Source: Ostreococcus lucimarinus
Lineage: Eukaryota
Length of the DNA: 64,000 nucleotides
Direction: 5' to 3' (one strand)
Assembly: GCA_000092065.1 (NCBI GenBank)
Contig: CP000598.1
Part shown: one piece after another, positions 24,394-53,705 of the stretch
Layout: every line of letters starts with the position of its first letter
How positions within the stretch are numbered: position 1 is the stretch's first letter
Position numbers and translations under genes: made by a program
The notes under the pieces: model-generated
Told to the model about the DNA's origin: nothing
Seen by the model: the letters and a program-made list of their open reading frames with translations, nothing else
Database searches by the model: none

Positions 24394-24567
24394 TGCGAGC
24401 TATACCTTATAAATTGTGATCAATCGGGCCTAGTGCGTCGATAAGTGATGATGATTACAAGGAGCTATCATTGATTAGTTCATTAATGAGTGTTAACTCG
24501 TCAATTAGTCATCCTAGGTTAACTAGGGGAAGCTATACTTCATATTTTACTCTTCAGATTTCTAACA
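24394..24567 (-). mobile_element. solo LTR of a copia-like retrotransposon (5'-TG...CA-3') flanked by a 5-bp target-site duplication GTGTC
   Basis: 174 bp, about 95% identical to the LTR at 55885..56059 (shared 'caatcgggcctagtgcgtcgataagtgatgatgattacaaggagctat...ttcagatttctaaca'). GTGTC is present at 24389-24393 and at 24568-24572. Confidence 0.6.
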
Positions 24568-31357: not shown

Positions 31358-32602
31358 TCACTCTGGAAACAAGGTACGCGTTTTTCTTCTCCAGTGCTTC
31401 AAGATATCGGCAATTGTGTTTGTGATGTTTGGGTCAGGAATCCACCCCGTCAGCTCTCGTATTTTCCTATTATCTGACAAAAGTATCTTCTCATCGTAAA
31501 GCCGCTCACGTGCACCATCAAACAGCGTCGTGATGTCTGGTCTTGTTGACAGTGAAATCGCTGTGTCTAGGATGTCCTTCATTGAAAGTGCGATGCCACT
31601 ACCGATGTTGTACGACTCTCCAGGCTCTCCAAGGTCTACAAGTTTCGTTACCACTCGTGCAGAATCGCGGAGGTCAGTTATGTCCCTTTTTGTGGTAATG
31701 CGCCCATGTCTCACCACTGGGCTTTGCAATCCGAGCTCGATCATTGCTATCTGCCGACAAAACTCTTGAGGTGCGAGACTCTCAGTCCCACCCGCTGAAA
31801 CTTGGATAAAAAATCGAGCGGTGACGACGTGCATGCCGTGGCTGTGCACATATTGCTGAGCAAGTAGGTCTGCTGCAACCTTGCTTACTCCATAAGGAGA
31901 CACGGGCGCCAATGGTGCTTCTTCAGGTATGGCCCCTTCCCACGTATCAGCAGTTTTTCCATATTCTGTGCTTGAACCAGCCAGCAGAAAGCGCGTTTTG
32001 TTGGAGAGTCCTGCAAATCGCACTGCTTCTAGCATGTTGAAGGTGCCTTTGATGTTGGTATCTAAAGTCAGCTCAGCGGAGTCATATGAAACCCCGTTGA
32101 TTGCTTGTGCAGCAAAATGGAAAATAACTGTTGGGCAGATTTCTGCGACCACCTGTTTGACACGAGTTCCGTCCAGAATGTCTCCACGAACGAGCTGTAT
32201 GTTGTTCAATTCGCCTGCCAAATTTGACAGGTCAGATCGGTATCGCACAAGACCGTGAACCTCATACTTTCCTTCCTGTATCAACTGTTTCACAACGTAG
32301 CTGCCTATCATTCCAGACACACCTGTCACGAGAGCTCTTGGTCTTGCAGATAGAGCACTCAAGCAAGGCGTGTAATCTTTACTCTTTGCATTAAGATTTG
32401 TAGCAAAAGAGGATTCCTCACGGTACATATGAGTTTTTGAAGGTTGAACATTGTATCGTGAAGTAACCGGGCTTGAAAGTCCTGATTTGAATTGCACAGC
32501 CTGATATGACGGATGTAACACAACAGCTGCTAAAACAAACGATGAAACAGCCAATATTCGTGCAGTCTTTCCCAGCGTGTGCTTGAAGCGACTGTCGCGC
32601 AT
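31358..32602 (-). CDS. NAD(P)-dependent nucleotide-sugar dehydratase/reductase of the extended SDR family (GDP-mannose 4,6-dehydratase/RMD-like), with an N-terminal membrane anchor
   Basis: 'LVTGVSGMIGSYVV' is a Rossmann GxxGxxG. 'YEVHGLVRYRS' resembles the GMD motif 'YEVHGIVRRSS'. 'GSSTEYG' and the 'YGVSK' YxxxK catalytic pair are present. Confidence 0.65.
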   Translation of the reverse strand: MRDSRFKHTLGKTARILAVSSFVLAAVVLHPSYQAVQFKSGLSSPVTSRYNVQPSKTHMYREESSFATNLNAKSKDYTPCLSALSARPRALVTGVSGMIGSYVVKQLIQEGKYEVHGLVRYRSDLSNLAGELNNIQLVRGDILDGTRVKQVVAEICPTVIFHFAAQAINGVSYDSAELTLDTNIKGTFNMLEAVRFAGLSNKTRFLLAGSSTEYGKTADTWEGAIPEEAPLAPVSPYGVSKVAADLLAQQYVHSHGMHVVTARFFIQVSAGGTESLAPQEFCRQIAMIELGLQSPVVRHGRITTKRDITDLRDSARVVTKLVDLGEPGESYNIGSGIALSMKDILDTAISLSTRPDITTLFDGARERLYDEKILLSDNRKIRELTGWIPDPNITNTIADILKHWRRKTRTLFPE

Positions 32603-33083
32603 AGATAGCTGTCCTTAGCAAGTGATGACTATGTTATACTTCGAAGGTGTGCGGGACAAAATTCGCGACTGCCCTTGAGCGGCACGGAATGAGTTCAACA
32701 AGTGAGGCGCGCTGGCAGGGCGACGGCGCGCGTATACGTGTCGCGTCTCTTCATTTGCCATCATTTTTTATGTACAGTACAAGGGGGCTAGTAGTACTTT
32801 AGTAAAGTAATTGTACTAATTGTAGTCATGATTGGTCGTTGTGCAGCATTGAGTCATGATTCGTCGTTTTACCCCTCCCAAACGTTGGCGGTATTTAGCC
32901 AGATCCGAATGTACACAGTCAGACGGTCGCTCTTGGGTCATGACTTGTCAAATGGGCTCAAAAACTCGCCCCGGCCGTGATCACCACAATGCCCTGACGC
33001 TCACTTTTTCGCTCAAAACGCTATCCTATGCCAAACGATGCCCGCACAACGGAGGACGCAGTCAAACGACTACAAACACTAGC

Positions 33084-34277
33084 ATGGCGTCCGTAGCGTC
33101 CGTTATCGCCGCCAAGCGCGCTGGCTTCATCGGTATGGGTCGTCTGGGATTGTGTACCGCCCTCAAGTTTGAGCAAGCGGGTTGGGATGTCTGTGGGTCT
33201 GACGTCTTTCCGTCGTACGTTGAAAGTATCAACGACAAGAGTCTTCGAAGCAAAGAGCCCGGAGTCGAAGAGGCTTTGCGAAAGAGCACGCGTTTGCGAG
33301 CGACTCTGAATCTCCTTGATGTCCTAGAGCATGCCGATATCGTTTTCATTCTCGTCGCGACTCCAACCAGCGCGGGCGAAGAGGCCTACGACACGACAAC
33401 TCTGAGCAGGGTCTTGAGTGATATCGCTAAATTAAGGCCGACAAACAAACACATCGTGATTTGCTGCACAGTGTTGCCTGGTTACATCTCGAACATCGGT
33501 AGTTACCTTATCGAAAGTTGCACTGGATGTAGTTTGAGTTACAATCCAGAGTTCATCGCCCAGGGTGAGATCATGAAGGGCCTCAGTGAACCCGACGTGG
33601 TGCTCATAGGGGAAGGAAGCGAAGAAGCCGGTGATATTCTACAGTTTTTATACGAGACCGCGACGTCCAATGAGCCTCGGATCTGTCGCATGTCTCCGCA
33701 AAGCGCTGAGATAATGAAACTAAGCGTAAACTGCTTTGTTACCACGAAGATCAGCTTCGCCAATATGATTGGTGACATTGCTGACGCGACGCCTGGTGCA
33801 GACAAATTCGACATCCTTAGAGCCGTTGGTCAGGATACACGTGTCGGCCACCGGTGCATCCTTCCAGGTTACGGCTTCGGAGGTCCTTGCTTTCCACGTG
33901 ATAATAGAGCACTCGGAATGTACGCACGCAAGGTTGGAATCACTCCTTCAATTTGCGACGCGACGGATGAATACAACCGACTTCACGCGGACGCCATGGT
34001 AAAGGCTCTTTTGGAACAAAAACTAGAGCATTATACCATCAGTGATGTTGCTTACAAGCCACAGTGTCCGGTGGATATTATTGAAGAGTCGCAACCACTC
34101 GAAGTGGCCAAGAGACTTGTTCAAGCAGGCAAGCGAGTCGTTATACGCGATCGACCCGCCATCATCGAGCTCGTACGCCGCGCTTACGGGCGTATGTTTA
34201 CCTACGGAGCATACAAAGTACCTAACGAAGAACCAAATACTTCTGCTGGCAACCCGTTATCAAGCTACGCGAGGTAA
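33084..34277 (+). CDS. UDP-glucose 6-dehydrogenase-family nucleotide-sugar dehydrogenase
   Basis: 'GFIGMGRLGL' is the NAD-binding GxGxxG. 'GYGFGGPCFPRDNRALG' is the catalytic Cys motif (canonical GFGGSCFPKD). The three-domain layout matches the UDPG_MGDP_dh family. The track ORF starts at 32856, but the first in-frame Met before the Rossmann fold is at 33084. Confidence 0.8.
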   Translation: MASVASVIAAKRAGFIGMGRLGLCTALKFEQAGWDVCGSDVFPSYVESINDKSLRSKEPGVEEALRKSTRLRATLNLLDVLEHADIVFILVATPTSAGEEAYDTTTLSRVLSDIAKLRPTNKHIVICCTVLPGYISNIGSYLIESCTGCSLSYNPEFIAQGEIMKGLSEPDVVLIGEGSEEAGDILQFLYETATSNEPRICRMSPQSAEIMKLSVNCFVTTKISFANMIGDIADATPGADKFDILRAVGQDTRVGHRCILPGYGFGGPCFPRDNRALGMYARKVGITPSICDATDEYNRLHADAMVKALLEQKLEHYTISDVAYKPQCPVDIIEESQPLEVAKRLVQAGKRVVIRDRPAIIELVRRAYGRMFTYGAYKVPNEEPNTSAGNPLSSYAR

Positions 34278-34446
34278 GCTCAACCATGTTCACGTTTCAA
34301 CGCTGTCACCAACTCACCGCGTGTCTGATGCGCTGGTGGCCAGATCTTTTGATTTAATATCTATCCATGATATAATCACAGATCTTTCACATCTTAGCCA
34401 CCGTGCTCGTCGTTTCCTCGGATCTCGCACGAAGTTGAGATAAATT

Positions 34447-34686
34447 TCATGTATAAATTACTCACCCTAATATCATACTGCATACACTTTAAGTGCGTCG
34501 ATAAAGAGCTTTGAGGTCGTGACAACGGCTGGAATCTACGAACCTGTTTCACGCATCAAAGTCCACCATGCTTTGAACCCTGCGGTTTGTGGCGCGTGAT
34601 GAGCAAGTAGCAAGTGCCACCCAAACCTGCGTTCTATGGTGCGCACGAGAGCATCCGGCATAGCCGCGAACCACGGCTCTTTTTTG
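34447..34686. repeat. dispersed repeat family B, copy 1 (a longer copy lies at 39543..40078)
   Basis: 'catgtataaattactcaccc...ctgcatacactttaagtgcgtcgataaagagctttga...gaaccacggctc' has high identity to 39590-39620 plus 39860-40078. The start motif 'ccttcgggggtaacctaggcgag' is also found at 25876. Confidence 0.6.
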
Positions 34687-34976
34687 TATGTGTACGATGT
34701 ATATGATTTGTATGTGTATGATTTGTTCGGGCGTTTTTTCCTTCGACTAATTTTGTCATCATCATCGAAACGGAACGTTTAATTCGAGCTCTCCACATTT
34801 TAGGGCTAATTTTGGGAAAAGTGTGACTGTCCATGTATAGACACAACACCAAACTCGATTAAAAAGCTCCTCAAAAAATGTGCGGGAATTGTCTCGAGTG
34901 TGTGGCGCTTGCGATTGTGGCACGCGTTGAAGCGACTCGCGGTACGGCACGTACGTAGTCTTGAACACGAATATAT

Positions 34977-36575
34977 GTGAATACGATTCACGTTCGAACG
35001 CTCTTGGAGTTGCGCTTCGACATGCTACTGAAAGTAGCTTGCGATTCCGGTACTATGGCTCGCCGAACGGTCATTCTGTTTGCGGTTGTGGCCGTGTTGC
35101 TTTGGAGACTGTTCTTGTTCGATATTGGTGACAGCAGATTTAAAAGTATCACACCACATCCATCACCGGAGCAAAGACGACAACAAAATCACCGAGCAAG
35201 ATTTTTAGAGCTCACACATAACGAAACCTACAAAACCGCAAATGTCGAAGAGAGGAACGATGAACATTTCAAGATGGAACGATATGAAGAATCACCTGCA
35301 AGATTACAAGCGTCAGCTAATTTGGATACACAGAGCACCCGCGTCTTGGTTTTAAGTTGGCATGGTGGTACCGCGAAAGACACAGCGATGCAACTTCATA
35401 ACGCTGGAGTTCGTCGCGAAAATATCGTGTGTGGAGGCATTATTTGGTACGAGAAAGTCCTCGATTCTGCTCCTTGCGTAAGAGATCATGCATTATCTGA
35501 GGCTTTGAATCGATTGACACAGCGTGTAAGAGGTTTTCCCATGGCTATCGATCCAGCAGACGAGAAATGGTTGGATGATTTCGCAGCTGAGGCTAGCGAG
35601 ATGCTATCTACGTTCCATGTGCTCTGGGCGGACTTTCCTACCGCCCTTTGTCTTCTATTAAACAAGATTGCCCCACATAAATTGATAGTACGCACAACGC
35701 ATCGTTTTGATCACCAGGTGGCTCATTCGAAGATAAATCACACGTCATTTGTACGTAAAAGCCTCATGCGCGTTCTACGCGAGGCGCCAATACTTCTTGC
35801 TGGGAGCGAGTACGATCGGGCATACATGAAGTTCTACACATGTCGTGAACCTGAACGTCTATTCATAACATGGCCAACACAGTATTTGGAGAGTTTGGGC
35901 GCATCGCGTACACTTACGAACGAGTCATGCTTCATCTTGTGGGGGGGGTCGAACAACGAAGGTAGTTCAAGCATATCGATTACATTTGATAGAATACGAG
36001 TCCTCGGGCGCACTATGGAGTCACAAGTTCCCATGAAAAGTCGCCCAACGAGTTTTGCTCACGCTTCGGAATTTGCAACAGAGCAAGCCGTAGTATATTT
36101 CCCATACAGTATGCCGAGTTCCGCATTTCATGAACTTTACGCGAGTGGTGTCCCCCTTTTCGTGCCATCGTTGACTTTCATGCTCGATGAGTTTTCAAAA
36201 AACCGTGGCTATCCTCACAAAGTAGCTGGTAATGTCCCTTGTGCTTCACCATCTTTTTACGAAAACGCTGAGGCAGTGGAGTTCTGCTGTCTTGACGATA
36301 CTGGGGTATGTCATGATCCAAATTCATGCGATCCTGAAGCGCTGAAACAATGGGTATCATTAGGTGACCTTTACACCACCCCGCATGTGACGTATTTCGA
36401 CAGTGCCGAGCATGCTGTGGAACTCATGAGCAACTGGATGAAGCATCCAGACCAACGGGATCGAACGATCGAGGACATGGAGTCACACAACGTTGCTAAC
36501 CTTCGATGGAATGCTCGTGTCGTTCAAGCCGCAATTCGTCATGTCAAACAAAGCAGCGCGCTTGAACTGGATTGA
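34977..36575 (+). CDS. putative type II membrane glycosyltransferase (GT-B-like C-terminus)
   Basis: 'RRTVILFAVVAVLLWRLFLF' is a signal anchor. The C-terminal 'VVYFPYSMPSSAFHELYASGVPLFVPS' resembles the GT1/GT4 donor-binding E...G.P motif. The last roughly 47 codons are duplicated at 40078..40213. Confidence 0.4.
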   Translation: MNTIHVRTLLELRFDMLLKVACDSGTMARRTVILFAVVAVLLWRLFLFDIGDSRFKSITPHPSPEQRRQQNHRARFLELTHNETYKTANVEERNDEHFKMERYEESPARLQASANLDTQSTRVLVLSWHGGTAKDTAMQLHNAGVRRENIVCGGIIWYEKVLDSAPCVRDHALSEALNRLTQRVRGFPMAIDPADEKWLDDFAAEASEMLSTFHVLWADFPTALCLLLNKIAPHKLIVRTTHRFDHQVAHSKINHTSFVRKSLMRVLREAPILLAGSEYDRAYMKFYTCREPERLFITWPTQYLESLGASRTLTNESCFILWGGSNNEGSSSISITFDRIRVLGRTMESQVPMKSRPTSFAHASEFATEQAVVYFPYSMPSSAFHELYASGVPLFVPSLTFMLDEFSKNRGYPHKVAGNVPCASPSFYENAEAVEFCCLDDTGVCHDPNSCDPEALKQWVSLGDLYTTPHVTYFDSAEHAVELMSNWMKHPDQRDRTIEDMESHNVANLRWNARVVQAAIRHVKQSSALELD

Positions 36576-36800
36576 AAATGCTGGTCGATACAAAGAAGCT
36601 GTGGGGGCGATACTTTGGACATCGTATTCAATATCTTACTTGGCGTACCTCGCCATGTAGAGTCTCACGCCTAGCGTATGTACGCGAAGTGAAAATAGAT
36701 TTGAGTTTTCATTTAGTGTAACTCGATAGCGGGTTTTCCATGGTGGTGTTCGGGATGGGCGCTACTCCCCCTGCCGTAGTATCGCATATTTCGTAATCGA
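36436..36800. repeat. segmental duplication unit (second copy at 40078..40440)
   Basis: A roughly 365-bp near-identical copy covering the 3' end of the 34977..36575 CDS and its downstream sequence. Confidence 0.85.
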
Positions 36801-37431
36801 ACAACTGCCCGTACGTTCCTCGCACTAAGTGAACAATCGCCACCCGGTCGAAAACTGTCACTTTCTTCCCCCGTCGCACGAGTCGTTTCGCGATTTCGAG
36901 CAGCTGGGACTCTTCGATGATATCCACAGGACAATTCGATTCATATGCGACGTAGGATACCTTACACCTATCGAGATCTAGCCAGGTAACACCGTGCCTC
37001 AAATCATCAAGTGTTTGTTCTCGGGGTTCAAGTCGCTAATATCACTCAAAAAACCGACTGAGCGCGCTTGTGTCGTACGCTTGATCTCCAGAGTCAGTGG
37101 GCGTGGCGACGAGGATGAAGACCATATCGACGCGATCGATCACTTCACGCAGCTTTAAAGTTGCGCGCAGATGTTTGCTCGATCGAAGCGCTTCCTCGAC
37201 TCTTGGCTCAGTCAAACGAAGCGTGATTTCGTTGATGCTGTCCACGTGCGCCGGAAAGACATCCGAACCAACGATATCCCAATCAGCTTGTTCACACTTG
37301 AGAGCCGTACATAGTCCGAGTCGGCCCAGACCGACGAATCTGGCGCGCGTTGTTTGCAAGATCGATCGAGTGGTAGCCATCTTCGCTCTGCGACGTTGCA
37401 ACGTCAGAGACGGCGACTGGCCCAAGATCAC
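36709..37431 (-). pseudogene. UDP-glucose 6-dehydrogenase paralog, internally deleted (N- and C-terminal fragments only)
   Basis: The 129-aa ORF 'ARFVGLGRLGLCTALKCEQADWDIVGSDVFPAHVDSINEITLRL...FILVATPTDSGDQAYDTSALSRFF' aligns to the N-terminus of the 33084 gene. The 97-aa ORF '...CPVDIIEESQLLEIAKRLVRRGKKVTVFDRVAIVHLVRGTYGQLFDYE...NPLSSYTK' aligns to its C-terminus. The central catalytic domain is missing. Confidence 0.7.
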
Positions 37432-37652
37432 TCCACTCTCTTAAAGCATGTCTCTTTCTGGACTTTATTATCCCTGGTACTTTGTTAGGTATATGTCGTA
37501 GGAACGCAACCGCGGACCACAGCCTCGGTGTTGACTCACCACTGCTTTCCTCTGCGTCGAAACTACCGCAACAACGCTCTTGACACGCGCACTAACATTA
37601 AGTACACCGGTCGTGAGCGACGCCATGCGCGAGTCGAATGAGTTCGTGAAAA

Positions 37653-38298
37653 CGTTTTACGATGATCGCCCTTGTAACATTCGGCTCGAAGGAATACTTT
37701 GAAGAAGTGACGCGGCGTAAATATTTCGTCGAGAACCACACTTTGGCATTCGCAAGTCTCGACGCGTACGAAAACAATCTGTTCTCGAGGTTGGTTGCGG
37801 TATAGGGACCGCGACACAAAGTTTTACTGAAGCTGGCGCGGTTTACACAGGCATCGACGTTTCCTTGCGAAGTGTAGAACTCGCTGAGAAGCGACTCAAA
37901 CTGTTCAAACTCAATGGTGAGGTGCGCGTTGCAGATATACAGACCGATGAATTCATGCACGACCATTTTGATCCTCTTTTTAGTTTCGGAGTTCTGCATC
38001 ACATCGCCGATGTACAACCCGCCGTGAAGGATATTTCATGACTCTCAAACCGGGAGGCGAGTGCAAGCTGATGATGTACGCAAATAATTCTTGGAAAAAA
38101 ACTTGGAAAAAGACTTTCGTCGACTCGGGATTGGACCAATTTGAACCACAATCTGGAGTTCCAATCACTCACACTTACAAAGCCAGTGTCGTGCAATCAT
38201 CAAGCTCGTTTGTGAAATCAAACTCGAGCGATCGTCGTCGACCGTCCGCGCTCGCCGAAGGGTGCGGGCGCAACGCAGGTGAGAATTCGCCCCAGTAG
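37653..38298 (+). pseudogene. class I SAM-dependent methyltransferase with at least two frameshifts
   Basis: Frame 1 reads 'MIALVTFGSKEYFEEVTRRKYFVENHTLAFASLDAYENNLFSRLVAV*'. Frame 3 reads 'VLEVGCGIGTATQSFTEAGAVYTGIDVS...DPLFSFGVLHHIADVQPAVKDIS*' (motifs I, post-I and II). A third frame gives 'LKPGGECKLMMYAN' (motif III). The frame changes are near 37790 and near 38037. Confidence 0.55.
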
Positions 38299-39364
38299 GC
38301 GCTCAAGTCGTTATTCGAGTACCAACGCACGGTTTCCGCGAGACCGACGTCCCAGGACTTTTCTTGTCGCCATCCGAGCGCTAAAAGCTTTGAGCAATCG
38401 ATGAAATATCTTCGGTCGTTGAAGGCTCGATCGCTCACGTGCTCGATGGTCGTTTCCGGGTCGCGATCGAGGAGCTTACAGACATCCCGAGCGACGGACA
38501 AGATCGTCCGCTCTTCGCGCGAGCCGATGTTATAAATCTGCGCCGTCGTCCCGCGGTGGAGAATGACATCGAACGCCGAAGACGCATCGTCAACGTGCAT
38601 GTACGAACGCGTCGCGTCGCCGTCGCCGTGTATCGAAATCTTTTCCCCGCGTTTCGCGAGGATTGAAAACTTTGGAATCGCCTTCTCTGGATACTGATTC
38701 GGCCCATACACGTTGTTTCCGCGAGTGATGATGTACGGTAGTCCGTACGAGCGTCCATACGCCATGACGAGCATCTCCGCGCCCGCCTTGGTCGCGGCGT
38801 ACGGGTTGGTGGGCGTCAGGAGCGACGCGTGCTCGGTGTTTGAATCCATGAGATTTTCCCCGTATACCTCATCCGTGGACACGTGCAGGAATCGTCGAAT
38901 TTCGGTCTTCTGCGCTCGCACGCACGCCTCGAGTAACGCGTGCGTGCCCTCGATGTTATTCTTCGTGAACTCGTACGAGTTCCCGAAAGAGTTGTCCACG
39001 TGACTCTGCGCGGCGAAGTGCATGACGGTGTCGATGCGCTCGCTTTGCAAGACGTAACTCAATAAATCGAACGAACGCACATCGCCCTTGACGAACCGCA
39101 CGTTCGCGCATTCTTTCGCGCGCTCGAGATTTTTCAAGCTCGAGCAATAGTCGAGCTTGTCCAGGATGACAATCTGTCGAGCGCGACGAGTCGTTCGCGG
39201 TCAGTCGTTCGCGCGAGAGATGGGTGCAAAGTCCGTGCGTTGTTCGACGCACGCGCACGGGGTCGAAATCGTGCGCGCACCGTGTACTCGGGATGCCTCG
39301 ACGCGAGGCGCTCGGCGACGTGCGAGCCGATGAAGCCGGCGCCACCGGTGAGAAGGATGCGCAT
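38175..39364 (-). CDS. UDP-/dTDP-glucose 4,6-dehydratase (RmlB/RHM-type), two exons: 39281..39364 and 38175..39173
   Basis: Exon 1 is 'MRILLTGGAGFIGSHVAERLASRHPEYT' (GxxGxxG). Exon 2 is 'IVILDKLDYCSSLKNL...HFAAQSHVDNSF...YAATKAGAEMLVMAY...NVYGPNQYPEKAIPKF', the hallmark of 4,6-dehydratases. Splicing restores the conserved '(Y/H)PEY-x-IVxLDKLDY' junction. Confidence 0.8.
39174..39280 (-). other. spliceosomal intron (phase 0, GT..AG, 107 nt) of the 4,6-dehydratase gene
   Basis: On the minus strand the intron begins GTGCGCGCAC and ends ...CTCGACAG. Removing it joins 'HPEYT' in frame to 'IVILDKLDYCSS'. Confidence 0.7.
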
Positions 39365-39542
39365 GCGGGCGGACGGGCGTCTCGGTCGAGCGCGTCTAGA
39401 TTTTCGCAGATTATCTCGACGACATGCTCGCGAATACCGCGCGCGCCTCGAGGGCGTTCGCGAGTGCTGCGCGCGATGTCCACGCGACGCCGCGCCTTTT
39501 GACGCCACTCGCACCGGCGCGCAGAAAACGAACGGCGGTTCG

Positions 39543-40078
39543 GCGGGGCGCGAAAGTGATTACTCCTTCGGGGGTAACCTAGGCGAGCTTCCCGTATTCA
39601 TGTACAAATTACTCACCCATATATCATACCTGGTATTGATCCGACACGCGTCAGAGATAACGGGGAGAATAAAACCACAGAAATTCATGTACACGCGGCA
39701 CTTCGACAAAGTCTTTCGATCGTTAAAGCACTGGTGACCCCTCTACCCTCCACGTTCTGTCAGAGGCTAGTTCTGTGAGTCTCTCAGTCTGTATTCTTTT
39801 ACACCGAAGGTCGCTCCGAGGACGAAACTATCTTGTGTTTATTTTTGGATCTGGTCTACTGCATACACTTTAAGTGCGCCGATAAAGAGCTTTGACTTCG
39901 TGACAACGGCTGTCATCTACGAACCTGTTTCACGCATCAAAGTCCACCATGCTTTGAATCCTGTGGCTTGTGGCACGTGATGAGCAAGTGCCACCCGAAC
40001 CTGCGTTCTATGGTGCGCACGAGAGCGTCCGCACGAGAGCATCCGGCATGGCCGCGAACCACGGCTCTTTTCTGGATG
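39543..40078. repeat. dispersed repeat family B, copy 2 (longer)
   Basis: It starts 'ccttcgggggtaacctaggcgag', as at 25876, and contains 'catgtacaaattactcaccc' and 'ctgcatacactttaagtgcgccgataaagagctttga...gaaccacggctc', matching 34447..34686. Confidence 0.6.
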
Positions 40079-40213
40079 AAGCATCCAGACCAACGGGATC
40101 GAACGATCGAGGACATGGAGTCACACAACGTCGCTAACCTTCGATGGAATGTTCGTGTCGTTCAAGCCGCAATTCGTCACGTCAAACAAAGCAGCGCGCT
40201 TGAACTGGATTGA
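39968..40213 (+). pseudogene. duplicated 3' gene fragment (C-terminal 47 codons of the 34977..36575 glycosyltransferase)
   Basis: The 81-aa ORF ends 'WMKHPDQRDRTIEDMESHNVANLRWNVRVVQAAIRHVKQSSALELD', which differs by 1 aa from the C-terminus of the 532-aa protein. The sequence upstream of it is repeat B. Confidence 0.7.
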
Positions 40214-40440
40214 AAATGCTGGTCGATACAAAGAAGCTGTGGGGACGATACTTTGGACATCGTATTCAATATCTTACTTAGCGTACCTCGCCGTGTAGAG
40301 TCTCACGCCTAGCGTACGTACGCGAAGTGAAAATAGATTTGAGTTTTCATTTAGTGTAACTCGATAGCGGGTTTCCCATGGTGGTGTTCGGGATGGGCGC
40401 TACTCCCCCTGCCGTAGCATCGCATATTTCGTAATCGAAA
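40078..40440. repeat. segmental duplication unit (copy of 36436..36800)
   Basis: Near-identical over about 363 bp. Identity stops at 'cgtaatcgaa' in both copies. Confidence 0.85.
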
Positions 40441-40450
40441 AGTTAACGTG

Positions 40451-40533
40451 CCCATCGAGTACTAATCAATGATAGCTACTTGTAATCATCATCACTTATT
40501 GACGCAGGCCCGATTGATCGCATAGTATTAGGT
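40451..40533 (+). mobile_element. truncated, degenerate LTR fragment of the copia-like family
   Basis: 'actaatcaatgatagctacttgtaatcatcatcacttattgacgcaggcccgattgatcgcatagtattaggtatagctcgca' matches the 3' half of the LTR at 55885..56059 in reverse orientation. Confidence 0.45.
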
Positions 40534-41006
40534 ATAGCTCGCATTTCGAAAATAATGTATGAGGGTAAAATAATGAATTTAATTAACGTCGACGTTTGTC
40601 GCGCCGTCGCGCGCCACTTCGCGCCGCGCGCGCGTCCGGGCGGCGCGGAGTCAACCGATGTTTCCGCGTATCGTGATATCCGACCGTTTAAGTTTGAATT
40701 CTGTGCGTGGGTGTTGACGGAACACGACCGTTGGAGCTCGATGGGCACGTTAACTTTTGGGCCAGATTCTGTCGCGTATGACGCACCCTCGCGCGCGCCG
40801 AAGCGCGTCTCCGACCGTGTCGACGGCACGGAAAGGTTGTAAGAAGGCTTCTCAGCGATCTTCAGCCTCGCTGGGAGGAGCAGAGGCAACGACGGCTCCC
40901 GCTTGCGACGACGAAGACTGGCGCGCTCAAGTGGCCAAAGATGCTCGTGAGGTTGCCGTTTCTTTGCTCGCGAACAAACGTCGCCGGGAGGTTTCTGTTT
41001 CTGATA

Positions 41007-41210
41007 CTATACTATACTTAGGGCTAGCTCATTCAGGCGATGTGAAACGTCCGTGACGACGCGCTCATACGTAAATTCTTGCATGAATGCGCGAGCATTT
41101 GCTGTGATTTCACGCAACCTCGTTAGCGATTCGCCATCGGTGTTCGCCACAATCTTCGTTTTCTCAGCCAAATCGTGCAAATCTTCGGATATTCCGATGA
41201 AGTGTATCAC
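41007..41210 (-). pseudogene. C-terminal fragment of a GT90 (CAP10/POGLUT-like) glycosyltransferase paralog
   Basis: 'HFIGISEDLHDLAEKTKIVANTDGESLTRLREITANARAFMQEFTYERVVTDVSHRLNELALSIV' is about 90% identical to the C-terminus of the 48623..49828 protein. No upstream catalytic region is present. Confidence 0.7.
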
Positions 41211-41423
41211 ATCTACTAGCTTGTCGCTGTAAGTGATCGATTTCTAAAAAAGTTGCACGAGGTAAAAACACCCCGGCGGAGTCCTCACCCTTTACCCATA
41301 CTCTTGAGTCATGAACGGCCAAAACCGAGCTAAATTTAGCGAAGCCCGGGCGAACCACGATTCATTCCTCCGTGAAGGACGTCCGCGTGCCCGAAGATTC
41401 CGACGCCAGCATACATCGCGGAG

Positions 41424-43796
41424 TTGATGGGACGGTTAAAAAGTATCCTCGTCCTCGATCGCCGAAGAGCGAGAACTCTGATCTCGTTAGTCTCGTTAGT
41501 CTCGCTAGTCTCGTTGTGTTTCGCCGCCCTGCTATCGGTGAACAAACATGCCGGTTGGCCGCGAAAAGGCGATCCTCCCACGCCCTCGTTGGACTCGATG
41601 AAAGATATCGAGTCAGAACGTTTCGACAGAACGGCCTATTCTGCTGAAATCAAAATCGCGATTGTCTTCGGTACGCGACCAGAGGCTGTGAAAATGGCTC
41701 CGGTGATTCAAGCGGTGGCCAGATCGTCGACTCTGAGTGCGATACTGATCTCCACGGGTCAACACAAACAGATGCTTGAGCAAGTTCTGCGCCAGTTCAG
41801 CTTGCAAGATAAAATTCAACACGAGCTAGCGCTGATGAAGCCAAATCAACAGCTCGCAGAGCTCACATCGAGCGCGGTGCGCGCGGTAGACGGCGTGCTA
41901 CGTTCGTCAAAACCAGACGCGGTGCTCGTGCAGGGCGATACAACGACAGCGTTTATCACGTCTTTGGCGGCGTTTTACTTGAAAATACCAGTTGGACACA
42001 TCGAAGCGGGTCTTCGTACGCGTGATATCTACTCACCCTTTCCCGAAGAAGTCAATAGACAGTGTATCTCAGTTATGGCGACGTATCACTTCGCACCCAC
42101 CGAACACGCGGCAAAAAATCTGTACGACGAGGGTAGACGCACGAATGTGTTTACAACCGGTAACACTGTTGTCGATGCCCTATATGCAATTTTAAAGACT
42201 GAACCGAGTGATCGAGTGATTGAGCTATCCAAAGTCGTGAAGACTGTATCCACTCTGCGCGACGTGAGGCTGTTACTTCTCACCGCTCATCGACGTGAAA
42301 ACCTTGGCGAACCCATACTCAACATCTTCACAAGCATAGAGAAGCTTCTGCAAGAATACCCTGACGTCGTCGTGATTTATCCCATTCACTTGAACCCTAT
42401 GGTGAAGCACTTAGCAGAACAGCACTTCGGCGTTGATACATTCCACAGCCTTGTACAGTCGGACCACGCGCCGCCAACGACTACGCACTTACGGCGATTG
42501 CTGATAGTACCACCTCTAGACCATGCAGATTTATTATTCATGATGAAAGAGAGTTTTTTCGTCATGACAGATTCGGGAGGTATCCAAGAGGAAGCGGTCA
42601 CTCTAGGAAAACCGGTGTTAGTGCTCAGAGACACAACAGAGAGACCAGAAGGAGTGCTCGCGGGCGCCGCAAAACTAGTTGGTCACGGTGCAGAAAGTAT
42701 ATACACCGAAGCGGCGTCTTTGCTGAAAGATCCCGATTCTTATAGATCCATGTCAGGCTCGAAGAAAACTTATGGCGATGGGAATGCTGCTGGAAACATC
42801 GTGCGCATCCTCGAGACAATGTTGAGAACGCCGCCGCCAAAGACACTTCCAGTATCGTCTTCGTTTCATAATGAACACTCCACTGCGCCGTACGAGAATG
42901 TGGTCGTCGTGACGGTTTGGAAACGTAAAACAATCACACAAGTGATGAAAATGATAAGCAAACAGACGACGCTGATGACGAAAAGAACTGCCATCGTTGT
43001 CGTTCAAAACGGGGAGCACGTGGATATTAGCGACGCGCTTCATCGATGGAATAGCTCAGAGGCTTGGTCGGGTGTTCCACCACACGTATATCACGTGCAT
43101 TCTAAAGTTGAAACGGGTTATTACGGTCGCTTTCTCGCGCCGATGTTCGTACAAACGACTCCACACGCAACGTTTATTGTTTTGGATGATGACGTTATGT
43201 TCGGATCGAGGTACTTTGAGAACATGCTGCGTGTCGTCGATGAAGGCTTTTTGGCGACGAGAAATGGTAGATTTTTGAACGAAAAGTTTTTAGAATTCGA
43301 TTGGCGAGGTCACTGGAAAGAAGGTCCGGTTGATACGTTTGACGAAGATGATGAATACGATTTTGGAGGTCATTTGTGGGCTGGGAGGATGGTCTGGTTA
43401 CAGGCCGCGTTTCGCGCGCCCCCTCCTTTACTTTACAATGCGGAAGACTTTTGGATAAGTGCTGTATTGCAAACAACCTTGGGCATCGGTACAAAGCGCG
43501 CGAGATGCCCTCGACCGGAAAATGGAGGCGATCTAGAACTTTGTGCTTGCAGCATGAAACAAGCCGGAAAGCACGAAGCCCCAAATCTTGGAAGTGACAA
43601 AATCAACGAGAGAAGATCAAAACGTCACGATGCGATGAAAACTATCGCCAAGCACTACGACTACGTGACGTTGTCTTCCAGGCGACGGTCGGCGGTTGAA
43701 GATGTTAAAAATCGCCACGAAGAAATACGTATGGAACGTTTTCACGCCGACGAGGAAACGTTGGAAATGTTTCAGCAGTGTCTTTACTGGTATTAG
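41424..43796 (+). CDS. bifunctional protein: a non-hydrolysing UDP-N-acetylglucosamine 2-epimerase (WecB-type) fused to a C-terminal GT-A-like glycosyltransferase domain (GT64-like, DxD)
   Basis: The N-terminal TM anchor is followed by 'KIAIVFGTRPEAVKMAPV', 'GHIEAGLRT', 'TDSGGIQEEAVTLGKPVLVLRDTTERPE', the canonical Epimerase_2 motifs. The extra roughly 330 aa carry 'NGYYGRFLAPMF...ATFIVLDDDVMF' (a DxD motif) and 'GGHLWAGRMVWLQAAF'. Confidence 0.75.
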   Translation: MMGRLKSILVLDRRRARTLISLVSLVSLVSLCFAALLSVNKHAGWPRKGDPPTPSLDSMKDIESERFDRTAYSAEIKIAIVFGTRPEAVKMAPVIQAVARSSTLSAILISTGQHKQMLEQVLRQFSLQDKIQHELALMKPNQQLAELTSSAVRAVDGVLRSSKPDAVLVQGDTTTAFITSLAAFYLKIPVGHIEAGLRTRDIYSPFPEEVNRQCISVMATYHFAPTEHAAKNLYDEGRRTNVFTTGNTVVDALYAILKTEPSDRVIELSKVVKTVSTLRDVRLLLLTAHRRENLGEPILNIFTSIEKLLQEYPDVVVIYPIHLNPMVKHLAEQHFGVDTFHSLVQSDHAPPTTTHLRRLLIVPPLDHADLLFMMKESFFVMTDSGGIQEEAVTLGKPVLVLRDTTERPEGVLAGAAKLVGHGAESIYTEAASLLKDPDSYRSMSGSKKTYGDGNAAGNIVRILETMLRTPPPKTLPVSSSFHNEHSTAPYENVVVVTVWKRKTITQVMKMISKQTTLMTKRTAIVVVQNGEHVDISDALHRWNSSEAWSGVPPHVYHVHSKVETGYYGRFLAPMFVQTTPHATFIVLDDDVMFGSRYFENMLRVVDEGFLATRNGRFLNEKFLEFDWRGHWKEGPVDTFDEDDEYDFGGHLWAGRMVWLQAAFRAPPPLLYNAEDFWISAVLQTTLGIGTKRARCPRPENGGDLELCACSMKQAGKHEAPNLGSDKINERRSKRHDAMKTIAKHYDYVTLSSRRRSAVEDVKNRHEEIRMERFHADEETLEMFQQCLYWY
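41483..41518. repeat. 9-bp tandem repeat (ctcgttagt)x4 inside the N-terminal anchor coding region
   Basis: It encodes (SLV)n, 'ISLVSLVSLVSLC'. Read directly from the sequence. Confidence 0.7.
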
Positions 43797-44069
43797 TAGT
43801 GACATCCTCTTCTTGGTAGCGCTCTTGCGCGCGGCAATCTCGCGACATATTCAAGAGATGTTTAGCCTTAGTAATCTAGTACGTAGTGAATAAATACTAT
43901 CAGTTTTAGAGCGAACGCTATAAGTTTTCACGGCGATGTCGTTCAAGGGTGAGTACGAGGTCACTCCGGCTTCATACACGGTCGCTATCGATTCAAAGCT
44001 CACACGACGCATACGATCGCCATTTCCCATCCCCGGTGCGCATTACCGCGAACGCATCGCGCACAAATA

Positions 44070-45116
44070 GTGGTGAGTATGGCGAAACCGAACCCCGGGC
44101 GGTTGAAAAGTTCGTTCCCGGCTGTTGCGTCACTTGTTAAGAGGAGTACTTTGGTGACTGTTTGCGCCTTCTGCGCCGCCTGTATCGCGTGCTGGTACAT
44201 TCGTACAGCTTTGAGTGAATCTCCTGTACGTGACAATAACGCAGCTCGTTCCAGCAGATTTAACTGCGGCGTCCGGCAGGCTCAGCTTCTATCGGTCGAT
44301 GGAAATCCGTGGCTTTTTCATTCGGGCGATGCGATCACTTCTACTGTTAAGGCGAAGGGCACTTTCGAGCCAGCGATAAGCAATTTGATTCGGCGTCAAC
44401 TCAGTATTGCAGATGGAATGATGGTCGATATAGGTGCAAATGTCGGTGTTATGACGAGTGTTGCGCTTTCTCTGGGCCGCGAAGTGGTCGCCGTGGAGGC
44501 ACTCCCGGATAACGCGAATCTGTTACGCTGTAGCGCAGATCACAACGGCTGGACCACGCTGTTGAAACTACATAATACGCCACTTGCTGATCCTGCGTCA
44601 AAATCCGAACGGTTTTGTGTGTGCCGGCCTATTGGAAACCCGAGCGACGGTATTCTAGTACCGTTTACTCAGTTTGCAGATCATCCTTTCTGTGGAGGTG
44701 GCCAAAGAAAAACAAAAGGAGCGACGGGGCACTGTGCCGAAGAAATGAAGTCCATAACCCTTGATGAAATACTAGGCAGTGGTTCGAATCCTATCGCCTT
44801 CATGAAAATGGATATTGAAGGAAATGAGTGTCGCGTCTTGAAAGGCGCGGCGGCGACCTTACATGGTGGCAACCCATGTACAATTTTAACTGAGTATAAT
44901 CCTGGTCTTCAGCAATATACCAATTGTACACTCATCGACATGATCGATCACATGAAGCTATTAGGTTACTTACCGCACACTTTTCAGCGACAAGGATGCT
45001 CTTTGAAGGAGCTTACATCCGTTCAGGCAGGAAAAATGAGCGCGCCAGGATCGGTGCATAATATTTGCTGGAAACCTCTTTTAGTTCCCAAACATTGCGT
45101 GAAAAAAGCGAGCTGA
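44070..45116 (+). CDS. FkbM-family methyltransferase, type II membrane topology
   Basis: 'MMVDIGANVGVMT' is the DxGAN.G motif, with 'VVAVEALP' and 'FMKMDIEGNECRVLKGA'. The signal anchor is 'LVTVCAFCAACIACWYI'. Confidence 0.7.
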   Translation: MVSMAKPNPGRLKSSFPAVASLVKRSTLVTVCAFCAACIACWYIRTALSESPVRDNNAARSSRFNCGVRQAQLLSVDGNPWLFHSGDAITSTVKAKGTFEPAISNLIRRQLSIADGMMVDIGANVGVMTSVALSLGREVVAVEALPDNANLLRCSADHNGWTTLLKLHNTPLADPASKSERFCVCRPIGNPSDGILVPFTQFADHPFCGGGQRKTKGATGHCAEEMKSITLDEILGSGSNPIAFMKMDIEGNECRVLKGAAATLHGGNPCTILTEYNPGLQQYTNCTLIDMIDHMKLLGYLPHTFQRQGCSLKELTSVQAGKMSAPGSVHNICWKPLLVPKHCVKKAS

Positions 45117-45718
45117 AACATCGTTCCAACGCATAGAATAAGTACGCTCTAAGGTGATATTCGTAAATCTGTTGCGCTCCAGGTATGACCACAGATCAAG
45201 CCCTAAAACATGGCAAGCGCGTAGGAAGTTTGCGAGGTCCCTCATACCCCACCCCGTTCATAGATACATAGCTTTCGCGGCCATAGTAGAGATAGAGCGT
45301 GGAAGGGCGAGGACTATCGCGCGTGTACGTGGCGCTAAAGGCGCGTGCACTCCTTCTGTAAAGTTTGTAAAGTAGTGTCCTAGAGTGTCGTAGACTTATT
45401 ATTTAGGTCGACCGCGCTCCTGGCGTTGCCGTGTCGTCAGTGCCGTGCGCCTGGCGAGAGTTAACTACGATTTGTACTCATTCATGGGGTTGCAAACGTG
45501 AGCACTGGTTGTCGAAAGTTCGCACCGCACCACACGAACCACCTGACTCAGTAAACCCGGTCCAAACACCGAACGGGTCGCCAGTCGTCCGCCCCTGTAC
45601 AGTAGCAGGGCGCACGACTAATACTCGTTTCGACGCTTCAGAGAAGAACCTACGATCGGCATTTAGCTTGGAAAGAAGGCTTCATGATCAATATCTAGGC
45701 GTCGAGTAGACGGAAGGC

Positions 45719-47044
45719 ATGAAGAAGACGTCTTCGAAGCGTCTCACAAAGTTTTCAGTCTGTCCCGTGGGACTCATCTTAACTTATGGTGTGCTGAAAC
45801 TAACGGGTCAAAGTTTCGAAGGCGATCTGCACGTCAATAGATTCAACGGTTCCGTTAGCGCCTTGTACACTGACCGTCGGGAATCTTGCTGGTTTCAGCG
45901 TTACGCTGATTTCCACGCGAACGCTGTGCGACGATCGCAGGAGGGTCAGTGCGTACCGTCCTTGATATACGTCTGCGACAAGCTCTGTGGGGGTGTAGGT
46001 GACCGAATGAGTGGTATCATGAGTGCGTTTTATCTCGCCGTCGTATTGGATAGGGCATTTTTCATTGAGTACAAGTCTCCTTTCCCGCTAACGCACACTT
46101 TGGTTCCGAAGACAGTTCGATGGGACCATAAACATAAAAGCAAGCGCGTATGCGCTTCGACGGGGTTCAAAGAGACCGAAATTTTCATGGTGGATTCCAA
46201 AGTCCCCTCAAAGGACCTCGAAAGGATCGAAGCGTTGCAAAGAGCTGGAACACCCACAATTAGACTTCACATCAACCGGTACTATGTCGGAATTTTTTTG
46301 TGGTCAGATCCTCATCAGTCTACACGAACACGATCTGATGGCGTGGCCGAATATTTTAAGGGCAAAATGACGCAATACCGTAGTTCACAGTGTGGAAGCA
46401 CGCTTGCACATGATTCGAGTGCTGCTCATACTTTTAGTTTTGCGTTTACTAACCTGTTTCACTTTGCGCCCAACGTCAAACGTCGAGCCTTAGAAATGCT
46501 TCAAGAGCTTCGTCTTCAAGACAATTCACCTTTCATCGCCGTCCACGCACGGATCGGTGGAAAGATGAAACGTTCAAATCGAGTCGTTGGTTGGATTGAC
46601 CCGAAGCGCCACGATATTGAGGATGTGACAAAGTTTTTTGACTGTGCAGAAATGAAGCGACAGCTGCTCGTGGAACACACACGCGATAACGCAAAGGATT
46701 CGTTGACCACTCATGTCGCTCCAATAGTTTTATTTTCTGATAGTGACGAACTAAAAAGTTCAGCTTTGGTGTCGGCTCGAGGCGTGCGCACTGTGCACAG
46801 TACCAATGTTTTTCACATCGACAGAAGTTGGAGCGTCTTCAAGCGGAGTATGCGAAAAGGGAATATGGATACTTTTGCTGAGCTTTATGTTCTATCTCAA
46901 GCATCGTGTATTGTTGGATCGAATAGTACTTACAGCGGCTTAGCTTCCTCGATCACGTTTCCTCCTCACCCGTGCTTCTCGTACTTTGATGATTGCACGA
47001 ACGCGCGTTGGGACTTTTGGACCGCCACTGAACGTCGTGTCTAA
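45719..47044 (+). CDS. putative fucosyltransferase-superfamily glycosyltransferase (GT11/GT23/GT65/GT68-like GT-B)
   Basis: 'CGGVGDRMSGIMSAFYLAVVLDRAFFI' resembles the GG(L/F)GN(R/Q) motif I. The C-terminal 'IVGSNSTYSGLAS' resembles the STFS motif. There is an N-terminal TM. Confidence 0.4.
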   Translation: MKKTSSKRLTKFSVCPVGLILTYGVLKLTGQSFEGDLHVNRFNGSVSALYTDRRESCWFQRYADFHANAVRRSQEGQCVPSLIYVCDKLCGGVGDRMSGIMSAFYLAVVLDRAFFIEYKSPFPLTHTLVPKTVRWDHKHKSKRVCASTGFKETEIFMVDSKVPSKDLERIEALQRAGTPTIRLHINRYYVGIFLWSDPHQSTRTRSDGVAEYFKGKMTQYRSSQCGSTLAHDSSAAHTFSFAFTNLFHFAPNVKRRALEMLQELRLQDNSPFIAVHARIGGKMKRSNRVVGWIDPKRHDIEDVTKFFDCAEMKRQLLVEHTRDNAKDSLTTHVAPIVLFSDSDELKSSALVSARGVRTVHSTNVFHIDRSWSVFKRSMRKGNMDTFAELYVLSQASCIVGSNSTYSGLASSITFPPHPCFSYFDDCTNARWDFWTATERRV

Positions 47045-47071
47045 TGCCGCAACTCGAAGCGGATCAATCTA

Positions 47072-48313: not shown

Positions 48314-48622
48314 GTATACCGAAGTGCTATCAACGCCCGTTCCGTTGTTTCACGCGACGCCATATCCGCGCAGCAGCTTTAATGCGCATCCAAAGTTAAA
48401 GTTTCATAGTAGAGCGCATCGAGTTATCGTGAGCACCACTCGTCTTAGAGTACACCACGTGTCAACAAGTGCGGCGTGCCTCTCGATTTTGAAATTTCTG
48501 CGCAAACGAGGGCGCCTTTCGCTCGTTCGCATACTCGTTCCACTCCGCGACGCGTTCGATTTACAACGGCACGCTCATACACATAGACTCGGGTAAATCG
48601 CAGTGATTATGAGCTTTTCGAC

Positions 48623-49854: not shown

Positions 49855-50056
49855 CTACTGCCGAATTCTTTCAGAGCGGCGAGTAAAACCATCGCGCGAA
49901 CCAAGCGCGAACATCTTGATCGTCAGCGCTATCGACAGAAATTTCCATATTAGTCGACGTTGGGTGCTCAAAGTTTGAACACGTGAAACCAAAATTGAGG
50001 TCCGGTAGAAAGTTGTGAAGCAAAGCGTTCTCGGCAAGTACACCATTTTCGAGCAT
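49855..50056 (-). pseudogene. gene fragment paralogous to the middle of the 51001..53277 glycosyltransferase
   Basis: 'LLHNFLPDLNFGFTCSNFEHPTSTNMEISVDSADDQDV..RAWFARWFYSPL' aligns to 'LLHKLLSSHNFGFFCSNFMHPTVENLELSIDEEGNLVC...RRWLRDWFYGPI'. Confidence 0.5.
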
Positions 50057-51000
50057 CAGACTGAAATACGCCTGGAGATCGTACTCTGGCGGCGTTCTTC
50101 ATAGACACCTCGAGGTGCGTCAATGCGTCAGAGCTTCCCAGGCCGACGCTGAGTAGAACGTTTGTTGCACATCTCTCACCGCACGGACGTCCAAGCGCGA
50201 GATGTCCCGGTAGAACATGGAATGCGCGTTCTTCACCGCGCCAACGTTGCAGTTCCTGATATCTCCGTTCAAGGTACTCTTGTACTGAAACAAATCGCGC
50301 GTGTCATCCACCGCGCTCACGTCCCAGTTCGCGATCGGCACGCTCGACGACGCGCTCCCGCCGACGTCGCCCCCGTGGCGTCGCCGCCGAGACAGTTAGC
50401 GTCGGCGATCGCGAATATCAGCGACCAATACGTCATGAACGGCGACACGTACCTGCTCGCCGAGCTCCACGCCGTGCGTGCCCCTTCCGCGCGCGTCGTC
50501 CCGACGACGCCCGCGCCCGTGGGCACCGTCCGCATCCTCGTCCGCGAGAATCGCCGCCATTCGCGTTTCGACGCGTTCTCCTTCTTCGCGCGTCGCGCTC
50601 GCGCACCCGCGTCGTCGGCGTCGTAATCCCTCGTCGCACAGCGCGCGACGATCGGTGCCGCGCTCGGCGCGCGAACGACGCTCGCGCGCGCGCGGTTCTG
50701 GGGCTAAAGTTTCCACGTCGGTTTGGACGTTAGGCTCTCCCTCGAAGGTGCCATGGGTGTGTAGAGGGCGTTTGGGGCGCCGAAGGGGGATAACCGCCGT
50801 CACAAGGCGTGGGGACGTTCTCCGCGTCCGCTACGCACGACGCGCGCGAGATCATCTTCACCGCGCACCCGGATCGACGCACCGAGCGAGACGCGCGCCT
50901 CGCCGACACCCTCCTCTAAAACGGACCGCGACGGCTCTGTTTCGCGTGACGCTCCGCATTACGAGCGACCGCGTCCGCGGGGACGCGGCGCGCACGTCGC

Positions 51001-53277: not shown

Positions 53278-53705
53278 GCTGAGAGCGGTTGCATCGGCTC
53301 AAAGTGGCATAGTGCTTGAAACTAATTAAGCGTCTTGTGTCTGTCAGTCATAACCACCTTTGCGAGAGGCGATTGTCCGTCATGGTCGTCGGTTCAGCCG
53401 TGCATAGGAATCATTTTAGCGATAGCAAAGGGAGCGAATGGTACACGATCAAGGTGGTCGAGCTTCTCACGCGACGCGGCCACGACATCGTGCAGCGGCT
53501 GAGCGCGCTCCCGGATGACGATTTCGTCTATCTGGCGAACGCGCGGTACTTTTTTCCCACTGGCGGCGGGTACGGAGGACAGGCGAGCATTTGCGTCGAA
53601 AGACTCGGTGGAACGTCGAGCTGGTGGCGCTGGTTTCGTCATCGAAAAGTTGAGCGCTGACTCGAAAGGACGTGCCCAGTGATTTACAAGAGTGTCTATC
53701 ACTTA

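Follow-up and report, generated by a model that had tools for sequence, protein, structure and literature searches.

Duplicated segments and dead glycosylation-gene copies on chromosome 18, the small outlier chromosome of Ostreococcus lucimarinus

Introduction

The small outlier chromosome (SOC) is thought to serve the most abundant marine picoeukaryotes as their antiviral 'immunity chromosome'. To our knowledge, the rearrangement of this chromosome is not yet understood at the sequence level. Here we describe a nest of duplicated segments and dead gene copies in a 64,000-nucleotide stretch (hereafter the window) of Ostreococcus lucimarinus contig CP000598.1, assembly GCA_000092065.1; the nest is built around a non-coding repeat, designated repeat B, and a predicted glycosyltransferase (GT) gene on chromosome 18, the SOC of this species. 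The closest described system is the SOC of O. tauri, which varies in size and content through duplications, translocations and 'massive rearrangements of small repeats', whose size correlates with virus resistance, and for which recent translocations from standard chromosomes have been reported (PMC5498103). Repeats, long terminal repeat (LTR) elements and rearrangement upon the acquisition of resistance have also been described there (PMC5082852), and resistance to prasinoviruses is associated with altered glycosylation genes (PMC5498103, PMC5082852).

The locus studied here resembles that chromosome, O. tauri chromosome 19, in its low GC content and its genes for glycosyltransferases, methyltransferases, sugar-nucleotide enzymes and transporters (PMC5498103, PMC5082852), as well as in its internal duplications, inverted and tandem repeats, transposon remnants and strain-variable content, and a dehydratase gene that carries an intron and is rich in GC at third codon positions (GC3) is a candidate counterpart of the genes translocated into chromosome 19. 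Unlike the O. tauri studies, which followed cultured strains of another species and another chromosome, with which synteny is not expected, the present analysis reads single junctions and pseudogenes at the nucleotide level from metagenome contigs and works from sequence alone. The SOCs of Bathycoccus and Micromonas share with chromosome 18 their size class, lower GC, glycoconjugate and methylation genes, species-specific content and lack of collinearity (PMC3491373), an account that deals with gene content only, whereas junctions and dead copies are the subject here. The dead copies themselves resemble the unprocessed pseudogenes of birth-and-death families, with a functional parent nearby, flanking non-coding DNA retained, and truncations, deletions, frameshifts or stops as lesions; unlike a single such family, they represent several unrelated enzyme types that have only a pathway and a chromosome in common. 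Fungal dispensable chromosomes and Prochlorococcus islands are likewise fast-rearranging compartments with genes at the parasite interface and transposons at their borders (PMC3491373, PMC5498103), but they belong to other lineages and involve other mechanisms, and we do not claim membership in either class.

Results

Repeats were located by self-blastn of the window, and a more sensitive blastn was run afterwards. The region 36434-36801 recurred at 40072-40439 with 97.6% identity over 368 bp (E 9e-179), and repeat B at 34476-34690 matched 39857-40078 with 85% identity over 229 columns and two indels (E 2e-72); the more sensitive search extended repeat B to the left, 34446-34478 being 91% identical to 39597-39629. 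The second copy carries about 225 extra bp (39630-39856) without a counterpart in the first. In both copies repeat B terminates in GAACCACGGCTCTTTT. After this sequence copy 1 has 1,743 bp (34691-36433), comprising the greater part of the GT gene with its promoter region, which are absent from copy 2, where GAACCACGGCTCTTTT is directly joined to CTGGATGAAGCATCC, the sequence found at 36434. Overall, copy 2 (39597-40439) reproduces 34446-36801 in part, with 34691-36433 missing, and the last 47 codons of the open reading frame (ORF) 39968-40213 are the copied C-terminus of the glycosyltransferase (Table 1). A preliminary description of this DNA had placed the recurrence at 36436..36800 and 40078..40440, fused to repeat B, had noticed the orphan 47-codon C-terminal ORF at 39968..40213, and had seen repeat B of copy 1 interrupted at the same point by a gene body of about 1.75 kb; the self-alignment that it proposed recovered every repeat described, far above chance, with coordinates off by a few bases at most.

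The internal junction of copy 2 (40071|40072) is blunt and without microhomology: the left parent continues with T, the right parent is preceded by A, and no bases are shared. A deletion between microhomologies, offered earlier as the origin of copy 2, therefore agrees with the deleted, partial nature of the copy and fails as to the microhomology. Compared with copy 1 of the window, copy 2 carries 11 substitutions in 201 positions in its repeat-B half and 9 in 368 in its right half (Fisher p = 0.09), and compared with the wild allele on contig L005 it carries 6/201 and 8/368, respectively. Both halves are thus equally diverged from an L005-like allele, which fits a single event. Copy 2 has diverged by 2.4-3%, whereas wild alleles of the parent block differ from one another by about 0.2%, and judged by this divergence copy 2 is not very recent. 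Since the copied block contains the tail of a dehydrogenase pseudogene, the copying postdates the pseudogene that sits tail to tail with the GT gene. Within repeat B, copy 2 has a 14-bp tandem duplication, and a 7-bp indel of copy 1 (34602-34608) is polymorphic in the wild, contig L005 being without it.

At its right end copy 2 adjoins a truncated LTR through an imperfect TAATYGA overlap, and the first arm of a perfect 22-bp inverted repeat lies on this junction; the inverted repeat may be the scar of a fold-back or an inversion. The LTR belongs to a family, repeat A, of about 174 bp that runs from TGT to CGCA and, downstream of an RVT_2 ORF, is preceded by a polypurine tract. Its members lie at 24394-24567, 55885-56059, 58412-58563 and, truncated, 40432-40546, and the solo copy at 24394-24567 (about 174 bp, TG..CA) is bordered by a 5-bp GACAC target-site duplication. 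The TG..CA termini, the polypurine tract and the 5-bp duplication around the solo copy mark repeat A as the LTR of a copia-like element. Scans of the nest with Rfam (E up to 1) and for tRNA genes returned nothing, indicating that repeat B is neither a known RNA nor a short interspersed element derived from a tRNA, and exact-protein look-ups of the ORFs 40555-40842 and 39968-40213 and of the NCBI partial dehydrogenase model found none on record.

Several further gene copies in the nest are dead. The UDP-glucose dehydrogenase pseudogene aligned with the intact gene at 32856-34277 over residues 77-212 and 390-473 at 50-57% identity (tblastx, tblastn), with 177 residues missing in between, and Pfam recognized only the N-terminal domain, with a trace of the C-terminal one; the exact protein of the intact gene was present on 10 wild contigs and clusters with O. 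lucimarinus ABP00622.1. The S-adenosylmethionine (SAM) methyltransferase pseudogene is spread over three frames, one for its N-terminal part, another for motif I (VLEVGCGIGT) and the last for LKPGG. When the pieces were searched separately one alone matched Pfam, while the joined conceptual protein gave a full Methyltransf_12/25/11 domain (E ~1e-14). No indels were found across either pseudogene in comparison with the independent wild contigs L001-L003. Because the lesions are common to the wild contigs, they are real, sequencing error being excluded, and are older than the sampled haplotypes. The GT90 fragment (41004-41232) matched 49831-49603 in inverted orientation with 90% DNA identity (E 2e-84) and is located 190 bp upstream of the gene for UDP-GlcNAc 2-epimerase. 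The dehydrogenase, methyltransferase, GT and GT90 copies are each homologous to a functional gene and carry disabling lesions, the mark of a duplicated pseudogene. The preliminary description had recognized the internally deleted dehydrogenase paralogue (to which stops and a frame change can be added), the frameshifted methyltransferase and the C-terminal GT90 fragment at about 41007..41210, copied from the end of the gene at 49.6 kb, and in each case the closer analysis agreed. The homology that it reported for 49855..50056 is also present, but this fragment is older and slightly offset (49931-50098), and the naming of its parent as a glycosyltransferase finds no Pfam match.

The parent of copy 2 was likewise called a glycosyltransferase at the outset. 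This label was a guess for which Pfam gave no support, the ORF 34977-36575 having no Pfam match, and the family profile had no match among PDB sequences. A predicted model has two Rossmann-like domains and a C-terminal helix, resembling solved GT-B enzymes, and is consistent with the label; of the GT4 E-x7-E motif, inspected by eye, the second Glu alone is kept (HELYASGVP, E360), with Ser at the first position. We therefore claim for this gene similarity to the GT-B fold as predicted, and not membership in a curated GT family. Translation probably begins with the ATG at 35055 (MARRTV...) or that at 35022. Ten homologues were found in public data, with 48-63% identity except for one that is near-identical, and conservation of the last 47 residues extends to every one of them (W487, P491, R494, M501, Q517, A519, I520 and R521 being invariant); in the predicted GT-B model these residues make up the long helix at the end. 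A scan of viral contigs for relatives of the gene found none, giving no sign of exchange with prasinoviruses.

Evidence on wild haplotypes came from metagenome and Logan contigs, not from cultured strains. A cassette corresponding to 32812-39545 was present on 9 wild contigs with 99.1-99.9% identity, and differed at about 2 positions per kb up to 38174. To the left, homology ends within a few bases of 32812, 44 bp before the ATG of the intact dehydrogenase gene, and at least five unrelated flanks are found beyond this point (Table 1). A GTACTAATTGTA-like motif lies at this recurrent breakpoint (32813-32824), and its copy number is variable in the wild flanks; as a general recombination signal GTACTAATTGTA was rejected, given its single occurrence in the window. 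To the right, two contigs from two independent assemblies (L001 and L014) depart from the window near 39545 and continue for about 100 bp into a copia LTR, after which L014 runs into the genes of 53316-55669 in a different order and orientation. This haplotype is without copy 2 at the right flank of the cassette. In addition, a wild in-frame chimeric gene (P0011, 428 aa) was found on one Tara contig (L007, 162-1562) and one other ENA contig (L008). Its 5' part corresponds to window positions 34875-35261 at 92.5% identity, that is, 180 bp upstream and the first 69 codons of the GT gene, encoding the signal anchor and stem, while the remainder is the body of the neighbouring epimerase gene (31362-32385, 98%), joined through an AGAG overlap. 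That wild contigs differ structurally around the same block supports a reading of the region in terms of gene turnover.

One gene in the nest, that of the NDP-glucose 4,6-dehydratase, proved to be intact. On a compact eukaryotic chromosome split reading frames may be introns, and the reading of 38175-39514 as a pseudogene consisting of a frameshifted ORF pair was rejected for a canonical 107-nt intron. Splicing joins ...PEYT to IVILDKLDY... and gives a product of 360 residues that aligns end to end with dTDP-glucose 4,6-dehydratases (6vlo, E 8e-87). The gene has a GC3 of 73%, as against 44-53% in neighbouring genes, and shows 12-16 differences per kb among wild alleles, as against about 2 per kb across the remaining cassette. 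By analogy with what is reported in O. tauri, the gene may have moved here recently from a standard chromosome.

The proteins of the window are exact matches to proteins of O. lucimarinus CCE9901 (ABP00655.1, ABP00661.1 and others), all on one record of 149,386 bp, and the window is part of chromosome 18 of that strain. This chromosome has been described as 149 kb long, with 53% GC and 78 ORFs, and as enriched in enzymes of sugar metabolism and methylation, as against more than 59% GC for whole Ostreococcus and Micromonas genomes (PMC3491373). The GC content of the window is 52.3%, below that of the rest of the genome. Pfam identified glycosyltransferases of the STELLO, GT61, GT90, GT8 and Gly_transf_sug (DXD-type) families, sugar-nucleotide genes (three NAD-dependent epimerase/dehydratases, a UDP-GlcNAc 2-epimerase, a UDP-glucose dehydrogenase and a nucleotide-sugar transporter), FkbM and Methyltransf_22 methyltransferases, and a copia-type reverse transcriptase. 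Location, lower GC, the dominance of glycoconjugate and methyltransferase genes, and structural differences between individuals, as seen in the metagenome contigs, all agree with what defines a SOC. A megablast of 34000-41500 against a plasmid collection gave no match.

Table 1. Positions of the repeats, genes, gene relics and wild flanks discussed in the text (window coordinates, or wild contig).
Feature	Position	Strand	Description
Repeat B, copy 1	34446..34690	+	non-coding; in the 777-bp spacer between dehydrogenase and glycosyltransferase; ends in GAACCACGGCTCTTTT
Duplicated block, copy 1	36434..36801	+	last 47 GT codons, 133-bp tail-to-tail spacer, last ~31 codons of the dead dehydrogenase (opposite strand)
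Repeat B, copy 2	39597..40071	+	left piece 39597-39629, extra 39630-39856, main piece 39857-40071
Duplicated block, copy 2	40072..40439	+	orphan GT C-terminus 40072-40213 (part of ORF 39968-40213), then spacer
Orphan dehydrogenase-pseudogene tail in copy 2	40347-40439	-	equals 36709-36801
Truncated copia LTR (repeat A)	40432..40546	+	5'-truncated copy of the ~174-bp LTR; ends at the terminus ...GCTCGCA
Perfect 22-bp inverted repeat	40438..40758	.	arms 40438-40459 and 40737-40758, 277 bp between; 100% complementary, E 0.007
Parent glycosyltransferase (GT) gene	35022..36575	+	type II membrane protein, N-terminal anchor, GT-B (GT4-like) predicted fold
Intact UDP-glucose/GDP-mannose dehydrogenase	32856..34277	+	Pfam UDPG_MGDP_dh_N and central domain; paralogue of 36709-37380
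UDP-glucose dehydrogenase pseudogene	36709..37380	-	residues 213-389 (central domain) deleted; one short frame change, in-frame stops
Class I SAM methyltransferase pseudogene	~37625..38298	+	three reading frames, stops between, at least two frameshifts
GT90 3' fragment	41004..41232	-	last ~75 codons and stop of the 48623-49828 gene (parent: Pfam Glyco_transf_90)
Old fragment	49931..50098	-	against 51808-51975(+) of the 758-aa gene 51001-53277; 57% aa over 56 residues, 66% DNA
Intact NDP-glucose 4,6-dehydratase	38175..39364	-	one 107-nt GT..AG intron 39174-39280, CTGAC branch site
Left flank type 1	L005		window type
Left flank type 2	L001, L002		97% copy of window 6194-7040 and FG-GAP repeat gene
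Left flank type 3	L003, L006, L012		third type
Left flank type 4	L004		DDE_3/DDE_1 transposase gene (3-1727) directly upstream of the dehydrogenase cassette
Left flank type 5	L013		fifth type

Discussion

We consider it probable that the region between the GT gene and the GT90 fragment bears the scars of rearrangement at the DNA level, by duplication, translocation and deletion, with junctions of the end-joining type and transposon LTRs where blocks meet, on a hypervariable SOC. According to the history that we propose, a block comprising at least 34446-36801, with repeat B, the GT gene and the tail of an already dead dehydrogenase, would have been copied about 5.15 kb downstream, the copy beginning right after 39596 as in a tandem-type duplication. 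The 1,743 bp missing from the copy would have been removed by a later deletion or skipped during copying, and the ends would have been joined bluntly, which points to end-joining and not to homologous recombination. The right end of the copy would then have been broken and joined to the truncated copia LTR, similar events would have left the GT90 fragment and the older fragment at 49931-50098, and the dehydrogenase and methyltransferase pseudogenes would be two older paralogues that decayed in place. The fragments are most likely non-functional relics, by-products of the process behind the strain-to-strain differences in this chromosome. A retro-copy (processed pseudogene) origin of the 3' fragments was rejected, as neither position 40439 nor the sequence below 41004 shows an A-run, and the block runs into the coding sequence of an opposite-strand gene and is joined to the upstream spacer that holds repeat B.

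A number of observations weigh against this history or restrict it. The LTR beside copy 2 is oriented opposite to the LTR in the wild haplotype, and the history took more steps than could be reconstructed. Copy 2 was found on no wild contig, its polymorphism being deduced from two contigs only, and a metagenome scan for the 26-mer across its junction was negative, a weak result in that the collection missed four JGI (Joint Genome Institute) contigs with repeat B. The link to virus resistance is carried over from O. tauri and would hold here by analogy. Of the ongoing birth-and-death turnover of glycosylation genes proposed in the preliminary description, the turnover is borne out by the homologies, the lesions and the polymorphism in the wild, whereas 'ongoing' would apply to the chromosome and not to copy 2 itself, whose divergence from its parent suggests an older event than the variation among wild alleles.

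The nearest alternative is an origin in one step, in which a break near 39596 was repaired by copying 34446-34690 and 36434-36801 with a template jump between them, so that a full duplicate never existed. The blunt internal junction and the same divergence of both halves are what such a repair would leave, no trace of the missing 1,743 bp was seen, the other local junctions are also joins with short homology or none, and SOC rearrangements have been likened to chromothripsis by Blanc-Mathieu et al. (PMC5498103). Duplication followed by deletion fits these data equally, however, and the approximately 225 bp at 39630-39856 require at least one further event in either model, and we hold the one-step origin to be possible but tentative. 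It is hardly credible that copy 2 is instead the original element, the C-terminus of the glycosyltransferase being repeat-derived and the 1.75-kb gene body inserted, as the preliminary description had offered as a choice. The gene body does sit exactly between parts that are contiguous in copy 2, but the 47 residues, eight of them invariant, are present in homologues of 48-63% identity on unrelated contigs and make up the terminal helix in the predicted GT-B fold, and the block also contains the end of another gene on the opposite strand. Conservation in all homologues, together with the position of these residues in the fold, indicates that they are ancestral gene sequence, and refutes a derivation from the repeat.

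Scarcely more probable is the explanation that the duplications are artefacts of the reference assembly. Repeats often misassemble, and another part of the window does contain a suspicious-looking one, an inverted repeat of 619 bp with perfect arms (55908-56526/57945-58563). The copies of the nest, differing by 2.4-15% plus indels, do not represent collapsed or duplicated reads, while copy 1 and both pseudogenes with their lesions recur in independent metagenome assemblies, and Logan contigs equal 41133-48808 at 100%. It is also improbable, although less so, that the fragments have been kept for a function, the spacer serving as a bidirectional terminator or 3' untranslated region module, or the fragments giving rise to antisense or small RNAs that regulate their parents during virus resistance. 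Both orphan pieces are 3' ends plus downstream sequence, and in O. tauri transcripts arise from non-genic SOC repeats, while expression of that chromosome switches in a co-ordinated way (PMC5082852). Against such a role, the nest gave no signal of a conserved RNA family or structure, and no constraint is apparent, with 2 synonymous and 1 non-synonymous substitutions in the 141-nt coding part and 6/227 in the non-coding part. Moreover, copy 2 is absent from the sole wild haplotype that spans the site, and no gene is placed to use the block as a terminator. On these sequence data a function for the fragments appears unlikely.

A more productive form of the process is conceivable but doubtful. 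Here modules would be shuffled, 5' cassettes with promoter and signal anchor being end-joined to other gene bodies and 3' cassettes with C-terminus and terminator likewise, with the chimeric gene P0011 as a success, copy 2 and the GT90 fragment as leftovers, and the 6.7-kb cassette 32812-39545, nearly identical in five or more contexts, moved or exchanged between haplotypes. If this were true, it would give rise to novel glycosylation enzymes of the Golgi, would bring genes into new neighbourhoods and would act as a generator of surface-glycan diversity under virus pressure.

With rearrangement scars as the preferred account, the locus is a well-resolved new example of the known hypervariability of the SOC, which will not surprise a specialist. 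Its blunt junctions, the age contrast between copy 2 and the cassette alleles, the recurrent left breakpoint and the chimera, in which the signal anchor has been swapped, add useful detail without amounting to a new phenomenon. The locus supplies junctions resolved to the base pair (blunt or 4-5-bp joins, truncated LTRs) and relics dated by a divergence of 2.4-3% against 0.2% between alleles, and public metagenomes already hold alternative SOC haplotypes of O. lucimarinus, an in-frame chimeric gene included. The question of mechanism can be tested with existing data, and the current picture of the SOC is unchanged.

Additional observations

The 619-bp inverted repeat mentioned above, whose arms each contain the 3' end of pol and an LTR, encloses a truncated pol ORF of copia type (RVT_2, 56093-58015, minus strand) and reflects either a fold-back rearrangement or a fault in the assembly. 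On wild contig L014, a 3.4-kb PIF/Harbinger element (2869-6236) lies inside the copia LTR with an overlap of about 3 bp; it has a 554-aa ORF (Plant_tran, DDE_Tnp_4) and a second ORF of 443 aa, and is absent from the window. Two further ORFs amid the glycosylation genes, 45719-47044 (441 aa) and 51001-53277 (758 aa), matched no significant Pfam family, the former showing only faint O-FucT and xyloglucan fucosyltransferase matches; both may be further unclassified glycosyltransferases. Short tandem repeats are present as well, one with two units of 86 bp at 24819-24994 (97.7%) and a perfect one with a period of 56 bp at the end of the window (63818-64000).

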